Shown here one piece after another: positions 1 to 16,015 of a stretch of DNA of 64,000 nucleotides. Each line of letters starts with the position of its first letter. Within the stretch, counting starts at the first letter, position 1. A model generated the notes under the pieces. That model made no database searches, had not been told where the DNA came from, and worked only from the letters and a program-made list of their open reading frames with translations. This stretch comes from a phage, in the NCBI GenBank assembly GCA_028130375.1, contig GCA_028130375.1_3658.1. One strand, 5' to 3'. The position numbers were made by a program, and so were the translations under genes.

Positions 1-112
1 GGTCAACGTCTAGCGTGACAGGTGTCACAATCTCCTGTCCCACTGTGATCGTTAGTCGTTCTAACTCAAGCTTCCAGGGACCTTGGAACGAGTCTCACTA
101 CTAACCTTTAAA

Positions 113-139
113 GCCCCGCTTCGGCGGGGTTTATTTTTA
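113..139 (+). terminator. Rho-independent terminator (stem ccccgc / gcgggg, ttcg loop, T-run)
   Basis: Perfect 6-bp GC stem with ttcg loop at 114-129 followed by tttatttttat; the same hairpin recurs at 26545-26560. Confidence 0.65.
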
Positions 140-147
140 TGCTCAGA

Positions 148-176
148 TTGACTATTGTTACAAAATTTGGTAAAAT
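148..176 (+). promoter_or_regulatory. sigma70-like promoter TTGACT-17-TAAAAT upstream of baseplate operon
   Basis: TTGACT at 148-153, 17-bp spacer, TAAAAT at 171-176, about 35 bp before the first CDS. Confidence 0.5.
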
Positions 177-209
177 ACCTTGTAGAGATTTTCATACCGG
201 AGGAGTGAC

Positions 210-1700
210 GTGGCTAAGTATGGATTGACAGAGGCTGGTTTCGTTATACCAACCCTAAATGACCTAATCGTTGAAACTAAGCAAAGCCTGATCCGTGCTT
301 TTGGCGAAAACTTCAACGTACAGAGTAACTCCGTTGCAGATAAGCTGACCACTATCTTCAACGAGCGAGAGTATCAACTTATTCTTATGGCAGCATCTGT
401 ATACGCATCACAGACGCTGTATGGGGCAGAAGGTATCTACCTAGATGAGCTTCTTGGAAGACAGGGTATTTACCGAAGAGGCCGTTCTAAATCATCAGGT
501 ACCTGCCAGTTGACAATCAACACAACTGTGCCGTACAATATGATTTATGATTCCAAAACTTATACGCTGGACAGTGGCAACTTTGTTCTTAGCAACGATG
601 TGCAAGTAGCAGGGAATCTTATTGCTCACAGAATAAATGCTCCAGACCTAAGGATTGGGAAATACAACTTCCAAATTACCAACCAGACAGATGGAAGTAT
701 CAAAACAAAAAGCCTGGTTTTAACAGATAAATCTCTGGACTCTTCTGATTTGCCAAGCTTTTACGGAGAGATTAAGCAATTCATTGTCGATAATACAACC
801 CTGTTGAACGACGATTTGATTCAGATCGATATGTTGACAGGAACGTTGTGGATAGGGTACAATTCGAATCTTGATCAAGTTGGACTTAACAGTAGGGTAG
901 ATTTCAGAGTATCCCCGATTGTAGGGGAAAGAACTATCACACTGGATGTTATCGCTAACGAGGCTGGTGAGCTGTCAAGAGAAGCAGAAACCGTGACAAC
1001 AATGTCACCTACTCCTAGTGGATTTATCAAGCTTACCAACCGAGAAAGATTCAATGAGGGCAGGGATGTTGAGAAAGACTCAGAGTATCGCTTAAGAGCT
1101 TCCAGCACAAAACAGTTAACATCTAAGGCTACCCGTCCTGCAATCCTTAGCGCTGTAAGCGAGGTGAAAGGTGTTGAGAAAGTGAGAGTGTTCTCCAACA
1201 ACACCGATAAAACTGATGCTAAAGGTATACCTCCTTACAAGTTCCAAGTGGTTGTGTTTGGTGGTGCAACAGAAGACATTTGCCAAGCACTTTACCAAAC
1301 TATAGCCTGTACGAACAGGACTTATGGTAATATTTTCTACGATGTCACTACATCTGACGGTCAAACTGAAAGAATTTATTACTCCAAGGCAAACACCTAC
1401 CGCCTAGATGTAAGAATTACCTACTCCGGTGCTGCGCTTTCTACAACCGAAAAAGATGCCATTATAGAGGCTCTTTTGCAGGTTGTTAACGGACTGGATG
1501 TTGCAGATACGTTGTATAATATCCAATTGGTAGGTGCTGCATCTGCTGCTGTGTCAATAGGTAGATTTAATAGGCTGGTAATTCAAGTTAAATCCGTAGG
1601 AGCTTCTGATGAAGCTTACACTACAAACGATATTGTTGCGAACATGACCGAGGTGTTTGACCTCGACGAAAGTAATATAACTTTCCAACAAACTATTTAA
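210..1700 (+). CDS. Baseplate J-like (wedge) protein
   Basis: 496-aa ORF heading a run of tail genes; N-terminal region resembles baseplate J / Mu gp47-type proteins from memory; no search done. Confidence 0.5.
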   Translation: MAKYGLTEAGFVIPTLNDLIVETKQSLIRAFGENFNVQSNSVADKLTTIFNEREYQLILMAASVYASQTLYGAEGIYLDELLGRQGIYRRGRSKSSGTCQLTINTTVPYNMIYDSKTYTLDSGNFVLSNDVQVAGNLIAHRINAPDLRIGKYNFQITNQTDGSIKTKSLVLTDKSLDSSDLPSFYGEIKQFIVDNTTLLNDDLIQIDMLTGTLWIGYNSNLDQVGLNSRVDFRVSPIVGERTITLDVIANEAGELSREAETVTTMSPTPSGFIKLTNRERFNEGRDVEKDSEYRLRASSTKQLTSKATRPAILSAVSEVKGVEKVRVFSNNTDKTDAKGIPPYKFQVVVFGGATEDICQALYQTIACTNRTYGNIFYDVTTSDGQTERIYYSKANTYRLDVRITYSGAALSTTEKDAIIEALLQVVNGLDVADTLYNIQLVGAASAAVSIGRFNRLVIQVKSVGASDEAYTTNDIVANMTEVFDLDESNITFQQTI

Positions 1701-1711
1701 GGCGGCGAGAT

Positions 1712-2398
1712 ATGGCAGAGATTAAGTCGGATGTTAATCACATCCACACTCTGCCAGATTTTGTTCAGGGAGGTCTTGACTACCTGCCTGGAGATTTTCT
1801 GGCTGAGAAGGTTAATTTAGTCACATTCTTAACCGTATACCTTAAAAGGTTGGAGGATGTTGATAAGATGCTGGTAGGTTTGGCTGAAGGAAGATTGCTT
1901 AACAATGCCAGCGGAAGATACCTTGACGAAGTTGGTAATCAACTTGGTATTCTTAGGAATGGACTTTCAGATGCTGATTTTCGTGCCACACTAATTATTC
2001 AGCAGGCCGCAGCATCAAGGGGCGGGACTCGCGAAGATGTCATCTCCACCTTGCGACAATTGTTCGGAAGAGACAATTTCGATACGTGGAAAGGAGACAA
2101 CTTCAGGTTTGACATAAATATTAGAAAAACTTGCTTTGACATATTGCAGTCTATCGATCAGATCTTAGATATGCTACCATTACCTTGTCATTTGCGTCTT
2201 ACAGAATCGCAAGGGCAAGCTTTTGGTTTTGAAGGGGACTCTACAGCTCTTGGCTTCGGATCAGTGTGGGAAGAAAACCAATTCGGAGTTGGTGGTCTGG
2301 CTACTTTGCTATATGTTCCTGACGTAAGACCTGATTGGGACACCACAACCATTTATTGTGAAAGTATTACAGTAAACGCAACTAGACAGGAGGGTTAA
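1712..2398 (+). CDS. Putative baseplate/tail protein (P2 gpI-like position)
   Basis: 228-aa ORF immediately after the baseplate J-like gene, 11-bp gap; assignment is positional. Confidence 0.35.
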   Translation: MAEIKSDVNHIHTLPDFVQGGLDYLPGDFLAEKVNLVTFLTVYLKRLEDVDKMLVGLAEGRLLNNASGRYLDEVGNQLGILRNGLSDADFRATLIIQQAAASRGGTREDVISTLRQLFGRDNFDTWKGDNFRFDINIRKTCFDILQSIDQILDMLPLPCHLRLTESQGQAFGFEGDSTALGFGSVWEENQFGVGGLATLLYVPDVRPDWDTTTIYCESITVNATRQEG

Positions 2399-4470
2399 TG
2401 GCAACAGCTGTTTTTAAACCTTACCGTGATTACTCTACAATGGCTGCACGGTTTCATTACCGAACAGTTCAGGATACTGCCGTTCCTGGTAGGGATTATG
2501 ATCATGTTGAGGGCGATGTAACTATCCCAGTTGGGGCAACCAGTATTGAGATCCCCGTGGAAATTGTTGACAAATTACCCAACAGGTTGCCAAGAAGCTT
2601 CTTTATGGAGTTTTCATCAAAATCTCAAGGGGTGATGATTGGAACACAAAGGGCGAAATGTACAATAGTTTCAGATGAGAATCTTGACAGGATATCTTGG
2701 GATACTATTGAGGAGAGAATGTTTCACCCAAGATATTGGGTTACAACCACTCAGCAGACTGAAAGTACCTGTATTGTTGCAGATAACAACTGTTGTATTA
2801 ACCGTTTAGTGTCAAGAACATATGGAGGTATGGCTGGGTGCATTTGGGAAACAGTTGACAAGTATGACCATTTCGGTATTGGGTTTGATGATCACTATGA
2901 GATGAGAAACACCAAGCTTTGGTTCAGAATGTCAATAACCAACGCCAGCAACTTCTCCACTCCTGAAAAGATGATTATGACTGTAGACCTTGTTGATGGC
3001 ACAATCATCTATGTTCCTTTAGCTCAATATGCTGTCAGCATCTCAGAGGATAAGAATGTTGCAGAAATTCATATTGATTTTGAGGACTGCGTCGGGATGG
3101 ACCAGAACAACAACATGATGGGTGTTGATCCTCGGCAGGTGAGAAGGATTTTAATACCGCTTATGCCTAAAGACTGGGTAAGTAATAGCACAGACCCGAG
3201 AACGGAAAATGTAGAGTGTGAGTTGCGCCTAGATCTGCTTCAGCCAGACACAGGCTGGAAAATGATGCAACTTAACAATATCCAGGTGAGAGAGCACGAT
3301 GTTGGGATCTGCACCGCATATGACGATATGTGGAACGTGTCTCCTTTAAGGGTGTTGAACAATATCAAGCGTCTGGGCTATACCGGAACCATAAACCATT
3401 ATGTTGGTATGAGTCATTATTATGACTACACATGGTCAGGAACCCAATGGTCTATAAACAGAACAGGAGCGCTAAACGCTGCAGCTTATAAATGGCATGA
3501 TGATTTTATGTACAATGCCAAACGACATAACTTCGACGTTATGCAATCTGTAAGTTTTGAGCTTTTCAGCGATGCCTGCCCGTTGGAATGGACCCAAAGA
3601 GACTGGAACGATAACTACGCTAAAACAGGGTATACACCTTGTAGCTACCTCCTGTCTCCAACCATTGAAGAGGGTATGAATTTCCTTACTGCAGTATTTA
3701 AGAATTTTGCATCAGCCGCTATGAGAAACAACCTGCCAGTGATTATGCAGGTTGGTGAACCGTGGTGGTGGTACAATACCGATACTCGTAGACCTTGTAT
3801 TTATGATTACCCTACAAAACAGGCGTTTTATGATGAGACAGGCGAGTATGCATTAGATATTGGGACTATTGACGATCCTAAAACTGGAGGTGTTTACGAT
3901 AAGTATGTAGCATTTTGTCGTGGTAAGCTTGGCGCTCGTATTGCGGCTATTTCAAAGGCAATAAAGGCACACGCTGCATCAGCTCAGATGACAGCTCTGC
4001 TGTTTTTCCCAACCATTATGGAAACCGAGCTTACGCAAAAGCTTAACCTTGCTGACCAATATAAAAAGGAAGCAGGTGCTCTTGATTTCTTCTGCACCGA
4101 GTGCTACGATTGGGTGATGCAGGGAGGTATTGAAAAGGCAAAAGAGTCTGTAAACATACCTATCGTTAAGTTAGGTTGGCAACCGTCTGAAATACAATAC
4201 CTTGCAGGGTTCGTTCCTAGTAAAGAGCTTGCTCCGGTATATGGTTACGACCCAACCAGGAATTACCAAGAATTTTTATGGAGATGTATTTGCGGAAACA
4301 TGGCAACTATAGAGTATAGATATCCTGAGGTAAAACAGTATGTGTGGGCATACCCGCAAGTAATGTCTGACAGCATCACTGTTACCGCTAGAGATTCTAC
4401 CGTGCTTCATATGGGGCAGGTTGCTCTGAAAGGGTATGTAGAAGATGTTGTCCCGCCAGACTTCTCATAA
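2398..4470 (+). CDS. Putative baseplate or tail-fibre structural protein
   Basis: 690-aa ORF, start overlaps upstream stop (ATGG), sits in the structural operon. Confidence 0.4.
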   Translation: MATAVFKPYRDYSTMAARFHYRTVQDTAVPGRDYDHVEGDVTIPVGATSIEIPVEIVDKLPNRLPRSFFMEFSSKSQGVMIGTQRAKCTIVSDENLDRISWDTIEERMFHPRYWVTTTQQTESTCIVADNNCCINRLVSRTYGGMAGCIWETVDKYDHFGIGFDDHYEMRNTKLWFRMSITNASNFSTPEKMIMTVDLVDGTIIYVPLAQYAVSISEDKNVAEIHIDFEDCVGMDQNNNMMGVDPRQVRRILIPLMPKDWVSNSTDPRTENVECELRLDLLQPDTGWKMMQLNNIQVREHDVGICTAYDDMWNVSPLRVLNNIKRLGYTGTINHYVGMSHYYDYTWSGTQWSINRTGALNAAAYKWHDDFMYNAKRHNFDVMQSVSFELFSDACPLEWTQRDWNDNYAKTGYTPCSYLLSPTIEEGMNFLTAVFKNFASAAMRNNLPVIMQVGEPWWWYNTDTRRPCIYDYPTKQAFYDETGEYALDIGTIDDPKTGGVYDKYVAFCRGKLGARIAAISKAIKAHAASAQMTALLFFPTIMETELTQKLNLADQYKKEAGALDFFCTECYDWVMQGGIEKAKESVNIPIVKLGWQPSEIQYLAGFVPSKELAPVYGYDPTRNYQEFLWRCICGNMATIEYRYPEVKQYVWAYPQVMSDSITVTARDSTVLHMGQVALKGYVEDVVPPDFS

Positions 4471-4482
4471 TCAGGAGATAAA

Positions 4483-5523
4483 ATGTCAAAACCTAGTTTT
4501 CCATTAGAGATTTGGGCAGAGGAGGATCAGGTTCTGCCTAACACCCACAGACAGAACAGGCTACGCCCGATTGATGATTTGTGGAGAAAAGGTTGGGATC
4601 TTGGTCAAAAGCCCTCATGTGAAGAACTTAACTATATTTTCAATATGCTCGGGACTTGGGCAAAATACATTGCTGACGAGCAGATCCCAGCTCAAGAAGG
4701 CCGTTATCTGGTACGTGATAATAACTTGAGCGATCTTTTGAACATTCCTGTTGCCCGTAGAAACCTTGGGATTATCACTAAGGAAGAGGCAGACGCCAGG
4801 TATGTAAAAGTTACAGGTGATACAATGACAGGCCCCTTGGGGTTGCAACGTATCAACTTTAAAGCTGCCGAGACAGATAAGGCTTGGATAGAGACAACTA
4901 TTGGCCCAGATAAGACAACCCTCGACTTTGGGTTAAGTGATAATACCGGGCCGTTTGATGATGGTGGTACATCTACAGTAGATGCGTTTCGTTGGAGATT
5001 CCAGCCAACTCAGCCGGATATTAATCCAGAGTTCACTTTGATGTACCTTAACGCGATCACGGCTAATCGTGCGCTGTTGAAAGTGGTAGGCAATGTTGAA
5101 GTTGTTGATAACATGAGGTGCAATAACCTTACTATCAGCAATACAGCAACATTCACCAACTGTAATGTGGCCAGTCAGTTGACGGCTGGGTCAGTATATG
5201 TTAATGGTGGTGCAAGTTGTGACAGTATGGTTGTAAGAAGCCAGCACTGTGTTGTCGGCAACAGAAATGTGGTGCGCTCCGTGAATGGAGTGACGGCTAA
5301 CGGTAACGGTGATGTAACGATCACTATCCCGCAGACAGGTGTGCAAGACATCAGAATCGGTGCAAGACTTGTGGACGGCGTTTCTGAATCTCCAATCCGC
5401 AACGGATACGTTGTCACAGGCTGGCATTTCGGTGACAAAAAAGAGATGCGTGGTTCAACCTACTGGGCAGGACCTTTACAAAAACTTGTAAATGGTCAAT
5501 GGATCACTGTTAATTATGCATAG
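4483..5523 (+). CDS. Tail fibre protein, copy 1
   Basis: 346 aa; conserved fibre-type N-terminus (PLEIWAEEDQV...W..G), followed directly by a Tfa-type chaperone gene; C-terminal 20 aa nearly identical to the 6538-7581 product. Confidence 0.55.
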   Translation: MSKPSFPLEIWAEEDQVLPNTHRQNRLRPIDDLWRKGWDLGQKPSCEELNYIFNMLGTWAKYIADEQIPAQEGRYLVRDNNLSDLLNIPVARRNLGIITKEEADARYVKVTGDTMTGPLGLQRINFKAAETDKAWIETTIGPDKTTLDFGLSDNTGPFDDGGTSTVDAFRWRFQPTQPDINPEFTLMYLNAITANRALLKVVGNVEVVDNMRCNNLTISNTATFTNCNVASQLTAGSVYVNGGASCDSMVVRSQHCVVGNRNVVRSVNGVTANGNGDVTITIPQTGVQDIRIGARLVDGVSESPIRNGYVVTGWHFGDKKEMRGSTYWAGPLQKLVNGQWITVNYA

Positions 5524-5537
5524 ATCGGAGGACTAGC

Positions 5538-6122
5538 ATGAAAATACTTCAAGAGTTTAAACTTTACCAACCGGGATCTGGCGAATACCACTCCAACAAG
5601 GAAACCAAGGAGCTGACCCCTCAAGAGGTCGAGGATTACACCGCATACACTGGGTATTTTTTACGTAATGATGATGGTGATTGGTATGTGCAGTCACGAA
5701 CATTACGACAAGAAAATCCAGGTTGTATCTTCCTACTTGTTGACGAGAAGGGAATTCTTAAGACATCTACAGAAGAACCTGATGCCTTATGGCCTGCTCC
5801 AGGTCTTCGTGTGGTTATCGCCAAAAAAGAAGAGGTACCAGAAAACATTATGCTTCACCACGACGCTTTGCGTTTAGTTGGTGATGAATTTGTCACAGAC
5901 AATGAATTCTTTGTTCAACAGGCAGAGGGTGTCATAGAGACAGAACTTGCTTGGGCTACTGCTAGAATTGGTGCCTATCAAGACATGATTGACCTTGAAT
6001 ATGATCTTACTGATGACCAGAAACGTAACATCAGAGATTTGAAAATGTACAGGGTAAAACTTCTTGAAATAGATACATCTAAAGCCCCTGACATTTTCTT
6101 CCCGGAGCGACCTACCCTCTAA
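5538..6122 (+). CDS. Tail fibre assembly chaperone (Tfa family)
   Basis: 194 aa; C-terminus RNIRDLKMYRVKLLEIDTSKAPDIFFPERP matches the characteristic Tfa motif (YR..L..vD.S.APDI.WP..P) of lambda Tfa / Mu U / P2 G. Confidence 0.7.
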   Translation: MKILQEFKLYQPGSGEYHSNKETKELTPQEVEDYTAYTGYFLRNDDGDWYVQSRTLRQENPGCIFLLVDEKGILKTSTEEPDALWPAPGLRVVIAKKEEVPENIMLHHDALRLVGDEFVTDNEFFVQQAEGVIETELAWATARIGAYQDMIDLEYDLTDDQKRNIRDLKMYRVKLLEIDTSKAPDIFFPERPTL

Positions 6123-6133
6123 GAGGAGGTGTT

Positions 6134-6448
6134 GTGGAGTTGGATTTGGCGGCATTGTACGGTATCTGCATGGGTACCGTTGTCCCGATCTGTGTATGGG
6201 CTTTCAACCAGTGGCACACCAAATGGAAAGGCATTTCCAAGAGGTTGGATGAGCTGGAGAAAGACCTCATCTTAGTGAAAAACAGTATGGTTACAAAAGA
6301 TAAACTTGATTCCGTTATAGAGACCCGGTTAAGCAAGCTAGAGGCCGATATTAACGACCTTAAGCAGGATGTCAGGACAGATGTCTCCGGCATCAGAGCC
6401 GATGTACAAAAGATTTTGCACATGCTCGTAGAGCATAGTAAAAGGTAA
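6134..6448 (+). CDS. Membrane-anchored coiled-coil protein
   Basis: 104 aa; N-terminal hydrophobic segment LAALYGICMGTVVPICVWAF then heptad-like charged region; GTG/TTG start just after RBS agaggagg. Confidence 0.4.
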   Translation: MELDLAALYGICMGTVVPICVWAFNQWHTKWKGISKRLDELEKDLILVKNSMVTKDKLDSVIETRLSKLEADINDLKQDVRTDVSGIRADVQKILHMLVEHSKR

Positions 6449-6457
6449 ACAAAGGTC

Positions 6458-6490
6458 AGAACGGAAAGGACTCCGTTCTTGCATTTTGTT
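6458..6490 (+). terminator. Putative terminator hairpin (weak T-run)
   Basis: Stem agaacgga / tccgttct (6458-6479) followed by T-rich tract; overlaps the next promoter. Confidence 0.4.
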
Positions 6491-6507
6491 CTCTAAAGTG
6501 TTAAAAT
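6479..6507 (+). promoter_or_regulatory. sigma70-like promoter TTGCAT-17-TAAAAT for second tail-fibre gene
   Basis: TTGCAT 6479-6484, 17-bp spacer, TAAAAT 6502-6507, about 30 bp before the 6538 start. Confidence 0.5.
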
Positions 6508-6537
6508 AGTCCTAAGGAATTTTCTCAGGAGAACGCG

Positions 6538-7581
6538 ATGACTAAACCAGTTATCCCTCTTGATATTTGGGCCAATCAGGATGTTGTGCTTGAAAATACA
6601 GGAGAGTTGAATAAGTCTCAACCAAAAAAAGAAGAGAGATTGAAAGGTTGGGATATGACACAAAGAGTGGCATGTGAAGTTGTTAACTTTGAACTTCACA
6701 TGCTTTCTGCGTGGTTAAAGCATCTAACAGAAGATGTTGTCCCAGGATGGGATAATAGATTCTTAAGGGTCACTAATAATCTAGCAGACGTTCCAGACAA
6801 AGCTGCTGCACGTCAAGTTCTCAATGTATACTCGCCTGAAGAAATGGACGATCTGTATGTTGACAAGTCTGGAGACATAATGACTCAGACTCAAACTTTA
6901 GGTCTTCAAAGAATCGAGTTTGCATCTGCGTCAACAGACAATGCGGCAATATATACCACCATAACTCCAGACAAGACGACGATGGATTTCTGGATTATGG
7001 ACAACATCGGTGGTGCTGACGGCACAGACCTTGATGATCCTTCTCACCAAATAGACGGGTTCCGTTGGAGATTTCAACCTTCTGGTGGGCAGCCTGTGTT
7101 TTCGGCTATGAAGCTCAATGCTATAACTGCCAACCGTGCAAGACTGGCTATCCAAGGAAATCTTGAATGCAACGATGCAAAAAGTTCCTCTGCAAATGCC
7201 AATGCGGTCACGATACCAAGAGCCACTGTTAACGGACAACAATCCTGCGGAAGCGCTCAAATAGGTGGAAGAGTTGATTGTAACGATGAAACAGTCAGGG
7301 GTCAATATGCAACAGTTGGTGGAAGAAACGTGGTCCGCAGGGTAAATGGTAACGGCGCAGACAGTAGTGGTAACCTTACTATCCCTATGCCCAGCAGAGG
7401 GGTTGATGATGTAAGGATAGCAAACCGTTTCAAAACCACCTACAGAGAGTCAAGAGTCTACCCTGGACATGTGATGTGCTCTGGTAACTACGCTTATAAA
7501 CACCCTTATCAAGGTGATTACTGGACAGGTGCTATCCAAAAACTTGTAAATGGTCAATGGATCACTATATCTTATGCTTAA
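6538..7581 (+). CDS. Tail fibre protein, copy 2 (paralog of 4483-5523)
   Basis: 347 aa; N-terminus PLDIWANQDVV and C-terminus YWTGAIQKLVNGQWITISYA parallel copy 1; central region divergent. Confidence 0.55.
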   Translation: MTKPVIPLDIWANQDVVLENTGELNKSQPKKEERLKGWDMTQRVACEVVNFELHMLSAWLKHLTEDVVPGWDNRFLRVTNNLADVPDKAAARQVLNVYSPEEMDDLYVDKSGDIMTQTQTLGLQRIEFASASTDNAAIYTTITPDKTTMDFWIMDNIGGADGTDLDDPSHQIDGFRWRFQPSGGQPVFSAMKLNAITANRARLAIQGNLECNDAKSSSANANAVTIPRATVNGQQSCGSAQIGGRVDCNDETVRGQYATVGGRNVVRRVNGNGADSSGNLTIPMPSRGVDDVRIANRFKTTYRESRVYPGHVMCSGNYAYKHPYQGDYWTGAIQKLVNGQWITISYA

Positions 7582-7592
7582 AAAGAGGGTAA

Positions 7593-7859
7593 ATGAAACT
7601 AACTCAGTTTTTATGGGGACTGGTTGCGGCATCTGATGACCCTACGAAAGTGTCCCAATCTAAGCTATGGTCTAACATAGGCATGGCGGTGATGACTGGG
7701 GTGTTTATTCATATGGGGTATAATGATACGCTACCTGAATGGTATGCGTGGATATACGCGCCTTCAGTAGCTTGCCCCCAGCTTATTAGCAAATTCATCT
7801 CGCTCCGGTGGGGTTGCCAGCACCCTGACCACGTTAAAAACGAAGAGCAAAAAGCTTAA
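7593..7859 (+). CDS. Hypothetical small protein, possibly membrane-associated
   Basis: 88 aa with hydrophobic segments (SNIGMAVMTGVFIHMGY); follows fibre copy 2. Confidence 0.35.
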   Translation: MKLTQFLWGLVAASDDPTKVSQSKLWSNIGMAVMTGVFIHMGYNDTLPEWYAWIYAPSVACPQLISKFISLRWGCQHPDHVKNEEQKA

Positions 7860-7868
7860 GGAGAAATC

Positions 7869-9614
7869 ATGGCGCAAGACATGACAAGCTTTGAGCAGGC
7901 GGTAGATCAAGTAATTGTTGATTCTGAACGTTTGCACTTGGTTGTCAACGGTAACGCTGTGGATGAAGTTGTCGTAGAGGATGGGACCACCATCCCTACG
8001 GTACGAAAAGCCATGCTTGACAACCTTTATTTTAAAACGCCACCGATCCCTTGGGCGTATGGTGCATCCACAACAGTTTTTAACCAGCTGTATGAGTTTA
8101 AAGGGGACACAGGCCCTCAGTGGTGGTACGCTCCCGCAGCATCAAAATCTAACCCGGTTAGAATGCCAGCAGATCCTTCACAATCTCCAAACTGGAGATT
8201 ATACACCGATTCTGCAGTAATGGCAAAATATTACGCAAAACTTAACAGCCCAAGGTTCGAAGGTGACCCGCGAGTACCTACACCTCCAATGGACGATAAG
8301 TCAGAGTCTATAGCAAACACAGAGTTTGTTGTTGACTATGTTGATAGCATATTTGAAGCCATGGAGGGGATGAAAGTTACTGTAGGGTCTTTGGTGGTAA
8401 AAGGTCTTACAGAACTCGCCAACACCATAGTTGGAGGCACCCTTACCTTACATGGGCCTGTTAATGGAGCAGATTCTACTGCACGCTTCAGGAACCTAAT
8501 CCTCACGGCAAATACTTCTACACTCACTTTTGCGTGGAGCGATCCTAAGCATGCAGACTGGAGAAGCACAGAGCTGCAACCTCATGAAGTGTCCACCCAC
8601 AGGATTATAGCTGACACTATAACTTCCGGGAAACCAGTGGCTAATAATAACGATGTGCATTTTGATGGTCTGGGTAATAACTTTTTTGACTACGTGTACA
8701 TTCGTGGTAATGCCATGAAGTCAGCAACCGAACCGACATTGCAGGTCGATGGGACCACCAGGGTTAAGAACCTTGAGGTGACAGGCACCGTTACAGGGAT
8801 AACCTACTCTGTAGATGGCACCATGATCTACCCTAGCTATATTGAAAGCACGGGTGACGCATTAATAAATGGTGATTTGGAGGTTGGCGGGTCTGTAGTT
8901 ATTCGAGGTACGGCCTCTATCCAAAACATAGCTCTGAATACCTTAAGAGTCAATGAGCGTGCAACTTTTGAAGGAGAAGGGCTTACAGCCAACAAAGGTG
9001 TAATTACCGAGCTGACAACAACCACTTTAACTGCAACAACTGCAAACTCTGAAAACTGCAACGTTACCCGCAACTTGCAGGTAAATGGAGATGTCAGTTT
9101 AAACGCAGCAGGGACTGGCACCACCTCTGTTCACAACCTTGAAATATCCGGCACGGTGACCGGATGGCTGCCAGACTTCTCTAATGTCAACTTTGTCTGT
9201 AATGGCATTAACTCCAGTGGTAAGATAACCACCTCTCAAGAAATTGAGGCTGGTAAAACCATCACTGCCCCTACTTTCCACGCAGGGAAGGTAGATTTCG
9301 ATTTAGAGGAGGTTGACGCGTCCAGTGGGACATGGACACCTAACGGGCAGGCCAGTATGTATGTTGTCCACGCTAAAGGGGATTTTACAATAGGGCAGTG
9401 GCCTGGGACATCAGCGGAAGATAAACCTTATCCGTTCACTGCGGTTATCTATGTAATTCAGGATGCTGTAGGTCACAACGTGACTTTGCACGATAAGTAT
9501 GCTATCCTGTCGGCAACACCTGTTATTAACAACAGGGCTAACAGTGTTACCTTGCTGCAATTAACGTATTGTGGTGTTGGTGATATCGTAGACGTAGTAA
9601 TTGCACAACGTTAA
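7869..9614 (+). CDS. Tail fibre / tail spike protein
   Basis: 581 aa, Thr/Gly/Asn-rich with repeated TGTVTG-type motifs typical of beta-structured fibre shafts. Confidence 0.5.
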   Translation: MAQDMTSFEQAVDQVIVDSERLHLVVNGNAVDEVVVEDGTTIPTVRKAMLDNLYFKTPPIPWAYGASTTVFNQLYEFKGDTGPQWWYAPAASKSNPVRMPADPSQSPNWRLYTDSAVMAKYYAKLNSPRFEGDPRVPTPPMDDKSESIANTEFVVDYVDSIFEAMEGMKVTVGSLVVKGLTELANTIVGGTLTLHGPVNGADSTARFRNLILTANTSTLTFAWSDPKHADWRSTELQPHEVSTHRIIADTITSGKPVANNNDVHFDGLGNNFFDYVYIRGNAMKSATEPTLQVDGTTRVKNLEVTGTVTGITYSVDGTMIYPSYIESTGDALINGDLEVGGSVVIRGTASIQNIALNTLRVNERATFEGEGLTANKGVITELTTTTLTATTANSENCNVTRNLQVNGDVSLNAAGTGTTSVHNLEISGTVTGWLPDFSNVNFVCNGINSSGKITTSQEIEAGKTITAPTFHAGKVDFDLEEVDASSGTWTPNGQASMYVVHAKGDFTIGQWPGTSAEDKPYPFTAVIYVIQDAVGHNVTLHDKYAILSATPVINNRANSVTLLQLTYCGVGDIVDVVIAQR

Positions 9615-9621
9615 TATATCT

Positions 9622-9648
9622 AACCGCTCCTGACGGGGCGGTTTTCTT
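9622..9648 (+). terminator. Putative rho-independent terminator
   Basis: Imperfect hairpin aaccgc..tgac..gcggtt followed by ttttc, just after the 9614 stop. Confidence 0.45.
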
Positions 9649-9662
9649 ATCTGGAGAACACA

Positions 9663-12600
9663 ATGCTTCCAATCCCTTTGCTAAAACTTGGTCGTCATTT
9701 CCTCGATAAGAGGGGTGGAATTAAGGAACTTGCTGTTCTGTCATACCCAATAGACAACAGTGATGGTACAAGCAACACAGTATCCTATGTAAATAGCTTA
9801 GCTATACTTTTTGATGATGGTCAGCTTAATATTACTGGCTATAACAAGTTCGGAGAGTGCCGCACTGGGGATCGTAGCCCTATAAACTATCCGAGCGAAA
9901 CAGCCTGGAATGTTGATCATGTGTGGAGAGCAGACCGCGCGTTTGTGATCCGGACTTTTGATAACCAGTTTTTCTACATCGGCTGCACTGCAGGTCTTAT
10001 CGGATCCACTGCGGCAGGCGGTAATGATGTTTGCGTAAACGAGTGGACACCACTCCCAGAGCAGATTGTTAAAGGATTGCACCTTGACACCCACCCAGAA
10101 CGCCTTATTGAGGTGATGGGCGGTATTAACAACACTGTCTGGGTTATTGCAGAGGCAGAAGGTACTGGCATACTTAACCTGTATGGATCTGGTAACAACA
10201 CCTACGGATCTTTGCATGTAGATAAAAATCAGCATGCAACCCCTGTAAAGATTGGTGAGACATCGGAAAATCCTGAAACAGGCCCTTGGAAAAACCCAAG
10301 CATCAACTGTGAGGTGCATGACAACTCTGTTATTTTCGGTGGTCCTAGGGGTTTCTGGATTGCTGGATACGACTTTCTGAGAAATAACAGTAGAAACGAC
10401 CTTGTTTGGCCTCCTGTGCAGGTTACTCGTAACGATTTGAGGGGCATTCCTGCAGATGAGGAGTGGAAAGGGTTTATGTGTGGTCCTAACGGGGCAGTAA
10501 TTGCTACACAGAGGATGCATAGACCCGATGACCAGCAGCTTGTTAACGTATTTTATGGTCAAAACATTTGGGGAGATGATACATGGCGGGAACTGAATAT
10601 CACCTACACCCATGAGGTAATGATGGCTCGTGGGTACGGCACAAGTGGCATTTTCTTCAATAATGGCACTAAGCAGTATCGTGGGTTCTCTCGCAACTTA
10701 TGTAATGATATTGGTGCACAATCTGCAAACAATAGTCCTAGGGCCGATTTTATCCACTATCAAGCTCTTGCTACAGCTAAATATGTTGAGCAACGCCTGC
10801 CAGTCAGCTGGACAGAGAGTGTTTATTTCCAAGGCATCCACAGAGAAGGTTTCTTAGGGACCTTTACTGTTGTTAATGGTAAACTTTGGTGGTCAGGTAT
10901 CCCAAGGGGAAGTTTTACAGGCTCTAATAACCTGTTTGGCGGCAGACTTAATAGTCAGGGGTTCACAGAGGTTCCTGAGAATTGGTATAAAAATGTCCCA
11001 GTAGACAGTTGGGGCGTTGATGATATTTTCGACGTTAATGGTGTTAGCAGTGTTAGCAATATCTACATTGGTGACACGGTCAAGATGAAATTGAAGCCTC
11101 AGCCAGAGGGAGCTACGTTCATCATTGACAAGATTGAACTGGTGAATGCTGCAGGTACGGTTGTTACAGATGCAAATTACCAATTCTCCACCAACTGGAA
11201 CCACGGCGGGGCCAACGAAGTTGTTGTTACCCAGTATAACAGAAATGTTAACAGACGTGGCCTGTACTCTGTAAAAATAACCTATCATGACAAGCATGGC
11301 ACAGGCAGAACTCACACGACAAGGACTTTGAACTGGAACACCATAGTTCCTGCGTATCCGTCCAACGGCAAGTGGCATACCGTTGGTAGAAACAAGCAGT
11401 TCCATGTTAACGATACTGTATACTTTGGGCTGAATGGGACCCAGCCTGCAGTAGAAGGGGATACATCGTATATGGTCAGACTCCACAGAATGGATGCTGG
11501 ATCAGTCACTTATGATGTGACCCAAGAGATCTACGATCAAAGACGCGCCACGTATGACAATATTGTGAAAACACAAGCCTTGTGGGAGTTCAATCCTAAT
11601 GGCAAGGGTGGTAAAATGTTGCAGATTAATGAGCAGAACGGAACGTCGTTGACTGTTCACGAACACCCAGACCCTTGGCCTGATCCTGGAAAACCTCACC
11701 CGGGAGCTCGTACACTGAAAATTGTCAGCCATGATGCAGGATATTTCGGAATACGCTGGGAAGCTACAGTAAGATATGTCGACGGGACAACAAACAACAT
11801 AGGGATTACACTTGGCGGCACTAGTGAAGATAACTCGCTGAAAATTGCCTACACGCCCAGAGGTATCTCTATTGATAATATGGATGTTGTTCGCAATGGT
11901 TACGGCGATGTGAATGTCAAAGTTACTCTTGGCGAACATCTTGGTGGGGAAAGGATCATCATGTATGCCTTTGATCATGATCCACGCACCAATGGAACTT
12001 ATGCAAATCAGGCATGGAGTTACCTGATAAATGCACCTGAGCCGAATACTAAAGAGTTCTACTATGGTATGAAGCGAGATGTGTGCAAGAAAACAGGAAC
12101 ACATGACTGGATTGCTATCTGCGTTAAAGATGAGCGCACAGCTTGGGATGAGCCTGTTAACAGATGGTTCATAGGTATTCCTACCAGAAGTGATAAGTAT
12201 GTCGCAGAATATATTGTATGCATGGGCGGTACCAACCTAAACATGTGTTGGAACGAAGATGTAAACAAATACTCTGATTATGACTATATGAGGGATTACT
12301 CTTGTAATTTGTGGTTTAACCAAACTACAGGTTACCCTCCAAGACAGGCGAGAGTAAACCCTGCAATCTTCACAGACACGCAGGTTTTCTTGACAAAACA
12401 GGCCAACGAGGTTCAGACCTTCAAGAATAAATACGATCCTAACAAGTGGTTCTACAACTGTTACGGCGCATTTTTCTGGGGACCTGGTGAGTTACCTGGT
12501 GGGGGATCTTGCTTGAATGAGGCAACTTACGCAAGTGACTACATCATGGGGCAGGTCAAGAAGTATAAGATAATCCCCGGTCCTGAGACTTTGGGCAATG

Positions 12601-15299
12601 CAGTTGACCCTTATATCATCATGACTGCACTGAGATCAAACATGGATGGGACATCCATGTCCATGCAAATTCCGGTAACAAACGGATACAAACGTGTTGT
12701 GATGATCATTAAGTGCGACCTGATAGGTAAACAAGTTCTTGCAGAAAACGGGACATCCACACATCCTTTTGAGATCGCTCTGCACTATCAGTTTGCTGAC
12801 TCACCTTTTGCAGGGGATAAGAGAATATCTGATACAGACGCACAGCGTTGTAAGAAAGTATTGTTGGGTGCAGGTTGGTGGTGGTATGAGTTTGATTTAA
12901 CAGACAAATTCACCGACACGTCTAAAGTTGTAACAGGACTTCGTCTAGACCTTGGCGAGAACATGCACAAAGCTGTTTGTGATGGCACCTATGGTGACCC
13001 TACAATATACCTAAAATATGTTTCTTTTGAGCATCCGGAAGATGTTGTCTACGGTCCAAAACTGAGATTGTTTGGCAGCTGGATTGCAAAAGATAGGGTA
13101 GGCATGGGTAAGAAGGTAAGAGGGTTCTTGGTTGATGCAGGAACAGAAGACATGCTGGTTAATGCAGTATGGCCTGAATTACCTGGGACTCAGTGGGACA
13201 ACTCAGCCAAATCTATAAACTGGTTTAACATTCATAGGGCCATGTGGACCACTAACTGCTACTTGTGGAGAGAGCTTAACGATCAGGCCTTTGGATTCAG
13301 CGATGGTAGAAGGATGGCGATCATTTGCTGGACAACACTGCAAAGATGTTATGACCATGACTATGAGATTGGGGGCAGGGCATGGAAAAATATCAGGGAT
13401 AGAATCATAACCAATTTTGCAGACGACAACGGTGGTGGAGCACATAACTTTGGCACAAGCCGACTCATCCATTTGAACGGATCCTCAGCCTACAAGAAAG
13501 AAGGTTACTCTGGGTCTATGATCGAGTGGGGTCTGGTGAAAGATGCTCGCGTATTGATGGGCCAGCAACTTGCTGCCGCAATAGGTCCCAGCGCAGTGCA
13601 GTCGGTTAAACCAGCGTGGTTCGATATTCCATTGTGGTCACCCGGAACACCGGGAACTGCTGCAATCAACCCTGCCACTGGGGATCTGGAAATCTCCTGG
13701 GAAGACCTGAAGCAGGTCGGTGGTTGGGACAAAACAGGGTATCAGGTTCAATGGTGGAGGGCTGACGGATCTTTAGCCGCTGATGAGTTTGTTAAGGACA
13801 ATTTCTACACTATGTCCTCTGCAAAAGCACAGCAATTATTTGGTCAGGCAACTCCGTCAACGATCACCATGTCTATGTGCTGTAAAGACAACAGGACTGG
13901 AGCTTTGGGGCCAAGGGTTGCTAAAGTTTTCTCAGGTATTAAATGGAATCTACCTGTCCAAAGTATTTCATGGAAGCAAATAGGTGATAACAAGCTGCTG
14001 GTTACCCCTGCCTGTCAGTTCAACGCAACTCTTAACGTTGATCCTGCTGTTGCGGCAAACTCAGCTAAAGCTTCTGACTTCTCTGTGTCTAACACTGCTA
14101 TGGCAGATGTGAGGAAGATTGACACGCTGAACGCCAGAATTACCTGTAAAAACACTTATGGCACATTCCAAATCATCAACAACTTCACAGATGCTGATTC
14201 TAAGGTAGTGAGGACAGCAAGCCAGACTCTGAGTTTAGGAACTCTGGCCTATGCGGCCCTGATCACCGAACAGTCGGCAACACTCCAAGGAGGTGGTGTA
14301 GGCAAGTCCATTACAACACCTGTGTGGAAGCCAAATGAGTGGGTTGTGTTTGATTTGACTGTGGACTTCTCCAGCGATAATAACTGGACATGGGTAAGGA
14401 ATTGTTTGTCACAGTTGATGGGCGGTCCAAGCTCCGTTAGTGATAGTCACGACTCTACTGACCCGAGTGTGTTCCAGGTAGGTAAAACTCACCCAGAGAC
14501 TGGAGAAACGTTGCCTGACAGGAAGTATGCTTTGGTTTGCATCTCTTACGGGAAGGCAGATGTCACCTTCTCAGGGACACACACTTATAACGGAACCTAC
14601 AACTTCTCAAGGAAGTATAGTCTCAAAGCAGGGAACATTATAGACGAGGTTGGTGTGCTGTATAATCCGGGCAACGGCATAGGGATTGTTGGTGGTAAAC
14701 TGCAGATGCAGGAACCTTCTATTACCCCTTCCAACGTATCCGGGATTAGAAAGACTTGGGAAAGTAGTAATACCAACATTGCAACAGTGGATGCCACCAC
14801 AGGACTGGTAACATTTAAAGCTACTGGGAATGTCACCATAAAGTTTGTAGTTACAGATGATGCAGGGCGCAAAACGTCTTCAACATCTTTTACTGTCAAA
14901 CAGATGGCACCACAGTGGAGAATGTGGATAGGTACAGCAACAAACGGGGCATACCCTAATCCGGCAGGTACTTCTGGTATGAAGACTTTCTCTACAAGCA
15001 AACCGATGGAGTACGGCAGCGGTCCTAAGGTAGGGCAGATGGTGTACTTTGGTGCGTATATTCCTGAAATTATAGGGCTTCCGAGAAGTCAGCTTCAGTT
15101 GCTGTTTGGGGCTGGTGTTGACGATCTTGCCACTTTCGGGTATAGCGACAACATCGAGGCTGCAAGGAGTTCAGGATGGGTAGGGTTCAGAATGGAGTCT
15201 GGAAAGGAAGGCAGGATTCTAGGGACAGCCTCTATAGGTGTTATGTTCCCTGGTGACCAGCAGTATCGTCTAGAAGCCTACGCAACCTTTTCTCGTTAA
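9663..15299 (+). CDS. Giant tail fibre / adhesin with Ig-like (Big_2-type) domain
   Basis: 1878-aa ORF at the end of the structural operon; C-terminal segment ITPSNVSGIRKTWESSNTNIATVDATTGLVTFKATGNVTIKFVVTDDAGRKTSSTSFTV resembles bacterial Ig-like group 2 domains. Confidence 0.55.
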   Translation: MLPIPLLKLGRHFLDKRGGIKELAVLSYPIDNSDGTSNTVSYVNSLAILFDDGQLNITGYNKFGECRTGDRSPINYPSETAWNVDHVWRADRAFVIRTFDNQFFYIGCTAGLIGSTAAGGNDVCVNEWTPLPEQIVKGLHLDTHPERLIEVMGGINNTVWVIAEAEGTGILNLYGSGNNTYGSLHVDKNQHATPVKIGETSENPETGPWKNPSINCEVHDNSVIFGGPRGFWIAGYDFLRNNSRNDLVWPPVQVTRNDLRGIPADEEWKGFMCGPNGAVIATQRMHRPDDQQLVNVFYGQNIWGDDTWRELNITYTHEVMMARGYGTSGIFFNNGTKQYRGFSRNLCNDIGAQSANNSPRADFIHYQALATAKYVEQRLPVSWTESVYFQGIHREGFLGTFTVVNGKLWWSGIPRGSFTGSNNLFGGRLNSQGFTEVPENWYKNVPVDSWGVDDIFDVNGVSSVSNIYIGDTVKMKLKPQPEGATFIIDKIELVNAAGTVVTDANYQFSTNWNHGGANEVVVTQYNRNVNRRGLYSVKITYHDKHGTGRTHTTRTLNWNTIVPAYPSNGKWHTVGRNKQFHVNDTVYFGLNGTQPAVEGDTSYMVRLHRMDAGSVTYDVTQEIYDQRRATYDNIVKTQALWEFNPNGKGGKMLQINEQNGTSLTVHEHPDPWPDPGKPHPGARTLKIVSHDAGYFGIRWEATVRYVDGTTNNIGITLGGTSEDNSLKIAYTPRGISIDNMDVVRNGYGDVNVKVTLGEHLGGERIIMYAFDHDPRTNGTYANQAWSYLINAPEPNTKEFYYGMKRDVCKKTGTHDWIAICVKDERTAWDEPVNRWFIGIPTRSDKYVAEYIVCMGGTNLNMCWNEDVNKYSDYDYMRDYSCNLWFNQTTGYPPRQARVNPAIFTDTQVFLTKQANEVQTFKNKYDPNKWFYNCYGAFFWGPGELPGGGSCLNEATYASDYIMGQVKKYKIIPGPETLGNAVDPYIIMTALRSNMDGTSMSMQIPVTNGYKRVVMIIKCDLIGKQVLAENGTSTHPFEIALHYQFADSPFAGDKRISDTDAQRCKKVLLGAGWWWYEFDLTDKFTDTSKVVTGLRLDLGENMHKAVCDGTYGDPTIYLKYVSFEHPEDVVYGPKLRLFGSWIAKDRVGMGKKVRGFLVDAGTEDMLVNAVWPELPGTQWDNSAKSINWFNIHRAMWTTNCYLWRELNDQAFGFSDGRRMAIICWTTLQRCYDHDYEIGGRAWKNIRDRIITNFADDNGGGAHNFGTSRLIHLNGSSAYKKEGYSGSMIEWGLVKDARVLMGQQLAAAIGPSAVQSVKPAWFDIPLWSPGTPGTAAINPATGDLEISWEDLKQVGGWDKTGYQVQWWRADGSLAADEFVKDNFYTMSSAKAQQLFGQATPSTITMSMCCKDNRTGALGPRVAKVFSGIKWNLPVQSISWKQIGDNKLLVTPACQFNATLNVDPAVAANSAKASDFSVSNTAMADVRKIDTLNARITCKNTYGTFQIINNFTDADSKVVRTASQTLSLGTLAYAALITEQSATLQGGGVGKSITTPVWKPNEWVVFDLTVDFSSDNNWTWVRNCLSQLMGGPSSVSDSHDSTDPSVFQVGKTHPETGETLPDRKYALVCISYGKADVTFSGTHTYNGTYNFSRKYSLKAGNIIDEVGVLYNPGNGIGIVGGKLQMQEPSITPSNVSGIRKTWESSNTNIATVDATTGLVTFKATGNVTIKFVVTDDAGRKTSSTSFTVKQMAPQWRMWIGTATNGAYPNPAGTSGMKTFSTSKPMEYGSGPKVGQMVYFGAYIPEIIGLPRSQLQLLFGAGVDDLATFGYSDNIEAARSSGWVGFRMESGKEGRILGTASIGVMFPGDQQYRLEAYATFSR

Positions 15300-15312
15300 C
15301 AAGGGGGTAAAT

Positions 15313-15342
15313 AAAAAGGGGCCAAACGGCCCCTTTCTTTTT
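15313..15342. terminator. Bidirectional rho-independent terminator between convergent genes
   Basis: A-run, stem ggggcc / ggcccc with aaac loop, then T-run; lies between + stop at 15299 and - stop at 15347. Confidence 0.7.
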
Positions 15343-15346
15343 ATAG

Positions 15347-15547
15347 TTAGTAATACTCCCAACATGCCCCATCTTCAGACGGCTTGACGCGCTTACCTTT
15401 ATGGTCAACATAGGTATAGCCACAACCTTCACAAATAGCAGGTGCTGCATAGCCTTCCTTCCACTGATCCTCAGTGATCAGACCTTCCAAATCTTTGCAG
15501 TCAAAGCCAAACAACTCTTCAGAGCAATCTTTACAAAAATCAGCCAT
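15347..15547 (-). CDS. Small Cys-rich zinc-ribbon-like protein
   Basis: 66 aa with CKDC...C...CEGC...C spacing. Confidence 0.45.
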   Translation of the reverse strand: MADFCKDCSEELFGFDCKDLEGLITEDQWKEGYAAPAICEGCGYTYVDHKGKRVKPSEDGACWEYY

Positions 15548-15550
15548 TTC

Positions 15551-16015
15551 TCAGTCCTCGCATTTAACAAATTTTTCTATAGATCCACCAAGCACAGCTT
15601 GTTGTTTGATGGCACTTTCTTCATCATAGTGGATAGACTTATGTTCCGTACCTCCAAACTTACCTGTGTGGAAGGTGTGCACCCAAATCTCTTTAGGAAG
15701 GGATTTATTCTCTTCCTCCACCAACTCCCACATACCCCACAAGTGATCTGTGATATCTCTGATGAAATATCCCTCGCCGAGGTTTGTATTCACACTGTAA
15801 GCTGATTCGTGATCTCCGCAAATATAACGGAAGGCAGTGTACTCTTTACCTGGTGTGAAGTGAGTATCCATTAGTATGGCTGTTAAAGAATAAGGGTCTC
15901 GAAAGCCCAAGAACTTTAGTTTAACAATTTCGACATTTACATCTGCAAGATTATCCATGACGATCTCCTCTGTTTGGTTGGTGAGAATTATATATAGATC
16001 TGGTGGTGGTGTCAA
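15551..16015 (-). CDS. Hypothetical protein
   Basis: 154-aa ORF; true start may be the internal Met at about 15958. Confidence 0.45.
   Translation of the reverse strand: MTPPPDLYIILTNQTEEIVMDNLADVNVEIVKLKFLGFRDPYSLTAILMDTHFTPGKEYTAFRYICGDHESAYSVNTNLGEGYFIRDITDHLWGMWELVEEENKSLPKEIWVHTFHTGKFGGTEHKSIHYDEESAIKQQAVLGGSIEKFVKCED

Follow-up and report, generated by a model that had tools for sequence, protein, structure and literature searches.

Two paralogous short tail fibre genes of a Vequintavirus with diverged anchors, a single chaperone gene and 3' ends that appear to be homogenised by gene conversion

Outside the rV5-like phages, the closest described relatives of the two short tail fibre genes considered here, STF1 and STF2, which lie within positions 4483-7581 of a 64,000-nucleotide stretch of phage DNA (GenBank assembly GCA_028130375.1, contig GCA_028130375.1_3658.1; hereafter the window), are the fibre GpS of phage Mu and the short tail fibre of phage phiTE. 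The Mu fibre (5YVQ; baseplate 9KI1) docks on a wedge protein by its N-terminus, has a homologous tip that includes the (P)xQKxxNGxW strand, and is encoded directly upstream of the gene of its Caudo_TAP chaperone, GpU. Mu obtains two specificities by inverting its G segment (S/U versus S'/U') and expresses one of them per particle, whereas the locus described here holds two complete genes in direct orientation with one chaperone gene, and both fibre products have been reported in the virion. The phiTE short tail fibre (9CUY/9MJN) shares a homologous N-terminal anchor, and cryo-electron microscopy (cryo-EM) showed that its residues 3-92 make up the joint for binding to wedge 1. In the cryo-EM structure of phi92, gp147 (fibre III) is a downward-pointing Mu-like fibre at the bottom of the wedge protein gp145, and the authors proposed that it mediates irreversible adsorption and triggers contraction. 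Unlike the phage studied here, phiTE and phi92 have one such fibre each, and that of phiTE is 554 amino acids (aa) long with a coiled coil and Ig-like domains. A functional analogue is gp12 of T4, a baseplate fibre that binds the lipopolysaccharide (LPS) core irreversibly, of which T4 has a single kind. The chaperone of T4 gp12 is of a different kind (gp57A).

Positions 4000-8000 of the window matched Escherichia phage Murica (KT001917) at 100% nucleotide identity, on the reverse strand of that record, and ~115 further phage records at 95-99.7% identity. Murica is an rV5-like myophage of the genus Vequintavirus, and the locus is the short-tail-fibre module of a Vequintavirus. Gene order was read from the annotated neighbours in Murica and in the BASEL phage CarlMeissner, and rV5 gene numbers were assigned by matching the genes in order to the rV5 numbering and by cross-references in the PVP-SE1 record. 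STF1 (4483-5523, plus strand, 346 aa), the tail-fibre assembly chaperone Tfa (5538-6122, plus strand, 194 aa) and STF2 (6538-7581, plus strand, 347 aa; AGGAG ribosome-binding site at 6527-6531) are the same genes as rV5 gp33, gp32 and gp30 and as 'short tail fiber protein 1', 'tail fiber chaperone' and 'short tail fiber protein 2' of the BASEL phages, and differ from them in nothing. Kropinski 2013 (PMC3606486) reported that rV5 gp30 (347 aa) and the similar-sized gp33 are 42.3% identical and that HHpred finds both similar to gp12, the short fibre of T4. Maffei 2021 (PMC8594841) described paralogous short tail fibres with a GpU-like chaperone and related them by homology to Mu GpS and to the one short fibre that phi92-like phages have. 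The fibre pair, the single chaperone and the promoter P030 in front of STF2 were thus already known. The original prediction, made from the letters of the window, describes anew what had been published for a very common group of coliphages considered as therapeutic candidates, and so adds little as stated. New relative to the parts of Kropinski 2013 and Maffei 2021 covered here are the STF2 anchor type, the variable slot that STF2 occupies, the apparent gene conversion of the 3' ends and the conservation of promoter and hairpin across lineages. Domain history of anchor and tip, gene conversion and a promoter footprint were not found in those parts, and the paralogue pair is not addressed in the Septuagintavirus paper or the receptor-prediction preprint. 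The residual value lies in such details, which raise the question of the location of STF2 and of the need for both fibres, a concrete and inexpensive one for groups with cryo-EM or transposon screens of these phages at hand. The locus fits two non-redundant fibres, which differ in anchor, share one chaperone and have their tip ends homogenised by conversion, better than it fits alternative fibres; we consider the former reading evenly poised between right and wrong.

The duplication itself was as the original prediction had it, with both open reading frames (ORFs) at the coordinates and lengths given above. BLASTP aligned them as full-length paralogues with 153 of 356 positions identical (43%, E=5e-94), and both products belong to one family of tail-fibre proteins (phrog_4465, E ~1e-166 to 1e-171). 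The nearly identical C-terminus was recovered as well: 15 of the last 20 residues are identical and match YWxGxxQKLVNGQWIT (binomial P=0.005 against a 44% background). The description of conserved ends around a divergent centre was correct only for the ~20 residues at each terminus; taken whole, the anchor is less alike between the copies than any other domain, and similarity peaks in part of the shaft. By domain, identity between the paralogues was 38% for residues 1-110 (the N-terminal anchor), 46% for residues 111-258 (the shaft) and 47% for the linker and tip. When the alignment was read in 30-column windows, the best-conserved stretch was central (columns 106-225, 46-68%), and identity was poorest at columns 46-90 (27-30%), 211-270 (14-30%) and 301-345 (28-33%). 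Each fibre was at least 95% identical in all but one of ~117 Vequintavirus records, and Maffei 2021 (PMC8594841) reported short tail fibres without allelic variation.

Two fibre copies per genome occurred only in Vequintavirus and in a divergent metagenomic clade (L003, L011-L014; clade B), in which STF1 is 73% identical to that of Murica and the genes are arranged in the same order. A lone fibre copy followed by Tfa is present in Seunavirus, Mydovirus and Justusliebigvirus, and a single fibre place per record was seen for Certrevirus and Aeromonas phages among the matches listed. An ancestral fibre-chaperone pair of the Mu GpS/GpU type, of which Seunavirus, Mydovirus, phi92-like phages and Certrevirus have a single set, was duplicated before the known lineages of Vequintavirus diverged from each other. 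STF1 is closer than STF2 to the single-copy fibres (45% versus 39% identity to PVP-SE1, 47% versus 38% to Mydovirus), and its N-terminus (residues 1-108) matched the phiTE anchor (9cuy) in the Protein Data Bank (PDB) with E=1.4e-19, compared to E=1.3e-9 for residues 1-83 of STF2. STF1 is the conservative copy: its position is the ancestral one, its N-terminal anchor is of the ancestral type, and the chaperone gene has stayed with it. The divergent copy, STF2, has a conserved anchor type of its own and lacks a chaperone gene of its own.

Domain-wise neighbour-joining trees with bootstrap, in which the STF2 anchors came from three lineages, resolved different histories for the parts of the fibre. 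In the anchor trees the STF1 clade had a bootstrap of 100% and the STF2 clade 99%, and the two appeared as sisters in 0%; the anchors are nearer to PVP-SE1 (STF1 56%, STF2 49%) than to one another (38%). The shafts were weakly sister (68%). The tips of clade B grouped by genome (bootstrap 100%), and in that clade the STF1 and STF2 tips are 84-89% identical and the anchors 38-41%. Since the tips there are nearly identical and the anchors divergent, the conserved difference between the copies lies in anchor and shaft, not in the tip. The place of STF2 has a history as well. The slot between the 104-aa and the 88-aa genes (6449-7592) holds STF2 in Vequintavirus, a membrane protein with four transmembrane segments in PVP-SE1 and a 133-aa ORF in Mydo (slot-filling genes at L005 8997-9470 and L010 7919-8320). 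These unrelated small genes at the position of STF2 mark it as a variable slot.

We compared the 3' ends of the two genes codon by codon. The 30 nucleotides coding QKLVNGQWIT (5479-5508 in STF1 and 7537-7566 in STF2, both on the plus strand) are identical between the genes in Murica, CarlMeissner and L016. In the sub-lineage L006-L008 there are two to three synonymous changes (CTT->CTG, GTA->GTC, CAA->CAG), common to both paralogues. In the last window of the Murica comparison nine of 10 codons were identical, versus ~32% elsewhere (P=3e-4, uncorrected for ~34 windows). For most genomes of the divergent clade, synonymous identity was at background despite 85-95% amino-acid identity, which indicates purifying selection. 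In L013, 34 of 49 codons were identical and included an exact run of 29 nucleotides, compared to 18-24 of 46-48 in its sister genomes, and residues of its STF1 had switched to the STF2 state; judged by its sequence, L013 appears to carry a fresh conversion tract. The simplest reading is that recurrent short-tract gene conversion, retained by selection, would keep the C-terminal strand YWxGxxQKLVNGQWIT alike in the two fibres.

The chaperone gene directly follows the first fibre and only that one, in agreement with the original prediction. Its product matched the Pfam family Caudo_TAP (E=9e-12, residues 121-192) and phrog_136 (E=2e-36), and the gene downstream of STF2 encodes an 88-aa membrane protein, not Tfa. 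A tblastn search found one Tfa per genome (221 places in 221 phage records). The fibre-binding N-domain of Tfa is only 43% identical between the two two-fibre clades. Tfa did not match Mu GpU in a phmmer search of the PDB; according to the Pam3 paper, the conserved C-terminal domain of Mu Tfa is unsolved. From these sequences we infer that one Tfa binds the tips of both STF1 and STF2, and a single common Tfa would be the obvious selective agent for the shared tip end. Chaperone sharing and gene conversion would be a practical constraint on engineering receptor-binding tips in rV5-like phages, in which the last ~20 residues of the fibres are probably best left untouched.

A family profile built from 18 homologues and searched against the PDB matched the phiTE short tail fibre (9cuy) at the N-terminus (8e-27) and at the C-terminus (1e-9). 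It also matched Mu GpS (5yvq, E=1.7e-14; tip stretch with an independent E-value of 2e-8, residues 279-347 against 439-503), the repeats of the Pakpunavirus P7-1 short fibre, and Mu S'. The tip of STF1 alone matched 5yvq with E=1.7e-6, and STF2 is placed in the Mu GpS-type family because of its 43% full-length paralogy to STF1. The sole significant Foldseek match of a low-confidence STF1 model was the Mu fibre-chaperone complex (5yvq_A, 5.5e-7). The terminal motif is family-wide, with Q, G and W invariant in 18 of 18 homologues and counterparts in Mu (VYIRPVQKNINGTWYNV) and phiTE (YYKPIQKKVNGVWVTI). Homology to T4 gp12 was set aside: no gp12 chain came up at E<=1 when the profile was run against the PDB, nor among the listed Foldseek matches, and the published HHpred match was not reproduced. 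The order Baseplate_J gene, ~210-228-aa baseplate protein gene, fibre gene is strict in PVP-SE1, Mydo and PHB05. In the window STF1 follows the wedge genes in a relaxed form of this order, with a 690-aa gene interposed, and STF2 lies two genes further downstream. The STF1 tip (window 5341-5520, residues 287-345) recurs at 57-61% identity on fibre C-termini of unrelated phages, among them 52-kb Salmonella/E. coli myophages (for example ciri and UPF_BP2) and ~150-kb phages (for example nepoznato), and on a metagenomic fibre of 532 aa. The VVGGRNVVRSVNG linker, which is conserved, has the look of an exchange junction, and on that account the STF1 tip behaves as a mobile module.

The transposon screen HIDEN-SEQ 2025 (Extended Data Table 8) covered the sister phage Bas54 on a single host, E. 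coli K-12. Short tail fibre 1 scored as essential (3 of 61 TA sites hit), as did short tail fibre 2 (1 of 57), the Tfa chaperone, both small ORFs (104 aa and 88 aa) and the 581-aa fibre; the big flanking fibres bas54_0031 and bas54_0041 were dispensable. The transposon, as described for the T4 library, is without a terminator to limit polarity, the Bas54 library was made by the same procedure with a different anti-CRISPR gene, and the authors argue against widespread polarity. Since each fibre is required on one host, the two are not alternatives in the usual sense. Kropinski 2013 (PMC3606486) listed gp30, gp33 and gp32 among the proteins detected by phage proteomics. The proposal that these are alternative receptor-binding fibres was thus not borne out, given two genes essential on one host, the nearly identical tips of the divergent clade and the absence of allelic variation. 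A switch by an invertible segment, as in the G segment of Mu or the C segment of P1, was also rejected: both genes are on the plus strand, and no flanking inverted repeats were found at 4400-7700 beyond 18-19 nucleotides at 78-79% complementarity inside coding sequence (an invertase was not searched for).

We propose that the short fibres form two non-redundant sets, each of which would use its own anchor to dock at a baseplate site of its own. A single Tfa would fold both sets from their common tip, and for that reason the tip end would be kept identical. Both sets would bind the LPS core, which would lead to irreversible adsorption and trigger contraction. In its full form this proposal describes an obligate, non-interchangeable pair, whose anchors diverged to their own sites, which one chaperone serves and whose C-terminal strand conversion keeps alike, so that the phage would need two mounts, each with nearly the same LPS-binding tip, to trigger contraction. 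We put it forward tentatively, as somewhat more apt to be wrong than right. If true, the arrangement would be one unseen so far in any solved myophage baseplate.

The promoter and the hairpin that had been noted before the second gene were both confirmed in the 89-nucleotide intergenic stretch upstream of STF2. The hairpin (6458-6479, plus strand) has an 8-bp stem and an AAGGAC loop, and the RNA fold of 6446-6495 gave -17.5 kcal/mol (z=-4.6). The promoter (6479-6508, plus strand) consists of TTGCAT (-35, 6479-6484), a 17-nucleotide spacer and TAAAAT (6502-6507) within the extended -10 element TGT-TAAAAT-A of the TGn type, and its expected transcription start is near 6514. Table S4C of Kropinski 2013 (PMC3606486) lists TTGTTCTCTAAAGTGTTAAAATAGTCCTAAGGAATTT as putative late promoter P030, and this sequence is exactly window 6488-6524. 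The decamer TGTTAAAATA at 6499-6508 fits the rV5 late promoter class (TGGTAAAATA motif; sigma-70-like extended -10). The motif TGnTAAAATA had five matches in the window versus 1.07 expected; since the other match examined (32825) falls inside an ORF, the motif alone is not diagnostic. A generic sigma-70 promoter scan did not list P030, because its -35 hexamer fits 3 of 6 positions, and over 1-16000 the same scan gave 32 promoter-like sites where 28.4 were expected, which is no excess. As consensus scoring is uninformative for P030, its support comes from conservation in other lineages: TTGCATTTT, N14 and TGnTAAAATA are invariant in six distinct intergenic sequences from three lineages, in which the spacer and the flanks diverge.

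On its 3' side the hairpin passes into a T-rich tract and into the -35 hexamer. The hairpin, with an AAGGA loop, is kept across lineages with different stems, both sides having changed in four of seven pairs, and pairing was present in 71% of cells versus 29-60% in slid controls. This covariation gives modest support only, because six sequences were aligned and the stem in clade B is shifted by a single position. The hairpin is probably a weak terminator or an RNA-stability element. A comparable layout precedes the Baseplate_J gene, where a strong intrinsic terminator (111-132) is directly followed by TTGACT-17-TAAAAT with TG (148-177), an extended -10 promoter close to consensus that is the late promoter P036 of rV5; this is the same terminator-then-promoter order as before STF2. 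The layout at 111-177 also fits the tolerated transposon insertions in the upstream fibre gene bas54_0031. Transcription from P036 might be attenuated or processed at the hairpin and re-initiated at P030, which would make the dose of STF2, the 88-aa protein (p88) and the 581-aa protein (p581) independent of that of STF1, Tfa and the 104-aa protein (p104). Differential expression of the two fibres, raised in the original prediction, is on this layout plausible.

Several observations weigh against an obligate pair with two docking sites and against the regulation proposed for it. The separate docking site for STF2 is suggested by a single line of evidence, the divergence of the anchors. Neither STF2 alone nor an STF2-only profile reached Mu GpS in the PDB search, and the AF2 monomer model of STF1 from the 18-sequence alignment was poor (pLDDT 57.8, pTM 0.28). 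Essentiality in Bas54 may include polar or stoichiometric effects, and polarity is possible because every gene from bas54_0032 to bas54_0040 scored essential. A search of the rV5 supplementary files and their mass-spectrometry table for six tryptic peptides derived from Murica STF1, STF2 and Tfa gave no match, and the presence of the fibres in the virion therefore rests on the text of Kropinski 2013 (PMC3606486); the examined portion of that table lists major virion proteins only. P030 is a putative promoter whose activity is predicted from sequence. The U-tract of the hairpin is interrupted, and the rV5 authors did not list the hairpin as a terminator.

The best-surviving alternative is that STF1 and STF2 bind two LPS core chemotypes, such that either one is enough for a given host and the two in combination widen the host range. 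Recognition of two LPS chemotypes was proposed as possible by the rV5 authors (Kropinski 2013, PMC3606486), and the broad host range of rV5-like phages (Maffei 2021, PMC8594841), the separate promoters of the two copies and the low identity of tip residues ~290-325 in Murica-type phages (25-35% between copies) would all suit it. Both genes nevertheless scored essential on K-12, the tips of the divergent clade are 84-89% identical, and neither paralogue varies among ~117 genomes, while the host-range determinants of this phage group do. We consider this alternative unlikely. Somewhat less likely still is that STF2 is a structural adaptor or branch on another fibre, for example the 581-aa fibre, and is essential for assembly without being a receptor binder or needed for adsorption. 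Its own anchor type, its predicted co-transcription with p88 and p581 from P030, the physical contact between long and short fibre in phiTE and the branched, multi-fibre baseplates of rV5-like phages are in line with such a role, but STF2 has a complete Mu-GpS-like tip, nearly identical to the STF1 tip in clade B, which fits a distal, exposed, Tfa-requiring end. Co-assembly of STF1 and STF2 into heterotrimeric fibres, which would force near-equal lengths and would suit the essentiality of both, the single Tfa, the lengths of 346 and 347 aa and the identical C-terminal strand, is very improbable given anchors that are 38% identical and form separate clades, shafts set apart by several indels, one of them an insertion of 8 residues in STF2 of clade B, and solved relatives (Mu GpS, the phiTE short tail fibre) that are described as trimers of one fibre protein.

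The genes around the fibre pair bear on where the two fibres might dock. The Baseplate_J wedge protein gene (210-1700; rV5 gp36) is followed by that of a 228-aa baseplate wedge protein (1712-2398, plus strand; rV5 gp35; phrog_4056 'baseplate protein', E=2.5e-103). In all genera examined the 228-aa baseplate protein gene lies directly upstream of the fibre gene or genes. The 228-aa protein is the probable docking protein of the short tail fibre and, by synteny, would be the counterpart of phiTE wedge 1 and phi92 gp145. It carries a C-terminal extension of ~18 residues (residues ~206-228; VRPDWDTTTIYCESITVNATRQEG) that is absent in the single-fibre phages PVP-SE1 and Mydo, and the PHB05 protein ends differently. 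The tblastn alignment to the clade-B orthologues reaches residue 224, so most of the extension is apparently kept there. With the VRPDWDTTTIYCESITVNATRQEG extension the protein could offer STF2 or the 690-aa fibre an additional place to dock.

The 690-aa fibre of the NCTSP/deacetylase type (2398-4470, plus strand; rV5 gp34; PF23845 E=4e-80, PF23844 E=7e-13) has a Calx-beta domain together with NCTSP_N and NCTSP TIM-barrel domains, the latter two named in Pfam after non-contractile tail sheath proteins. In the BASEL phages it is annotated as a lateral tail fibre with glycosidase and deacetylase domains, and the receptor-prediction preprint proposed that its class binds the NGR glycan. Its gene adjoins STF1 in Vequintavirus and is absent at this position in PVP-SE1. 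Downstream of STF2 and the gene of the 88-aa membrane protein (7593-7859, plus strand; rV5 gp29; phrog_1322 'membrane protein', E=3e-32), the last gene of the unit encodes the 581-aa fibre protein (7869-9614, plus strand; rV5 gp28; phrog_4549, E=3e-251), on orthologues of which the Phage_phiTE_241 domains PF26208 and PF26209 are recorded. The unit is closed by an intrinsic terminator (9622-9643, plus strand) that equals rV5 t028 (Table S4D, PMC3606486).

Between Tfa and the hairpin lies the gene of a 104-aa membrane or coiled-coil protein (6134-6448, plus strand; rV5 gp31; phrog_5345, E=1e-48), whose N-terminal segment is hydrophobic and whose remainder resembles a coiled coil; its XhlA-like match in Pfam is weak (E=0.016). 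Its counterpart after Tfa in PVP-SE1 is annotated as a membrane protein, and Mydo has an ORF of the same length at that position. For the 88-aa protein, PVP-SE1 gp42 is annotated as a membrane protein similar to rV5 gp29, and Mydo has an ORF of matching size and position. In T4 the holin gene t adjoins gene 38. By analogy, the 104-aa and 88-aa proteins might be lysis proteins, or else fibre-assembly factors. Among the records compared, ~16-21 GenBank 'Campylobacter phage' entries (MG0656xx; host Campylobacter jejuni) were 99% identical to rV5-like or phi92-like phages of E. coli, and these entries are probably mislabelled or derived from contaminating coliphages.

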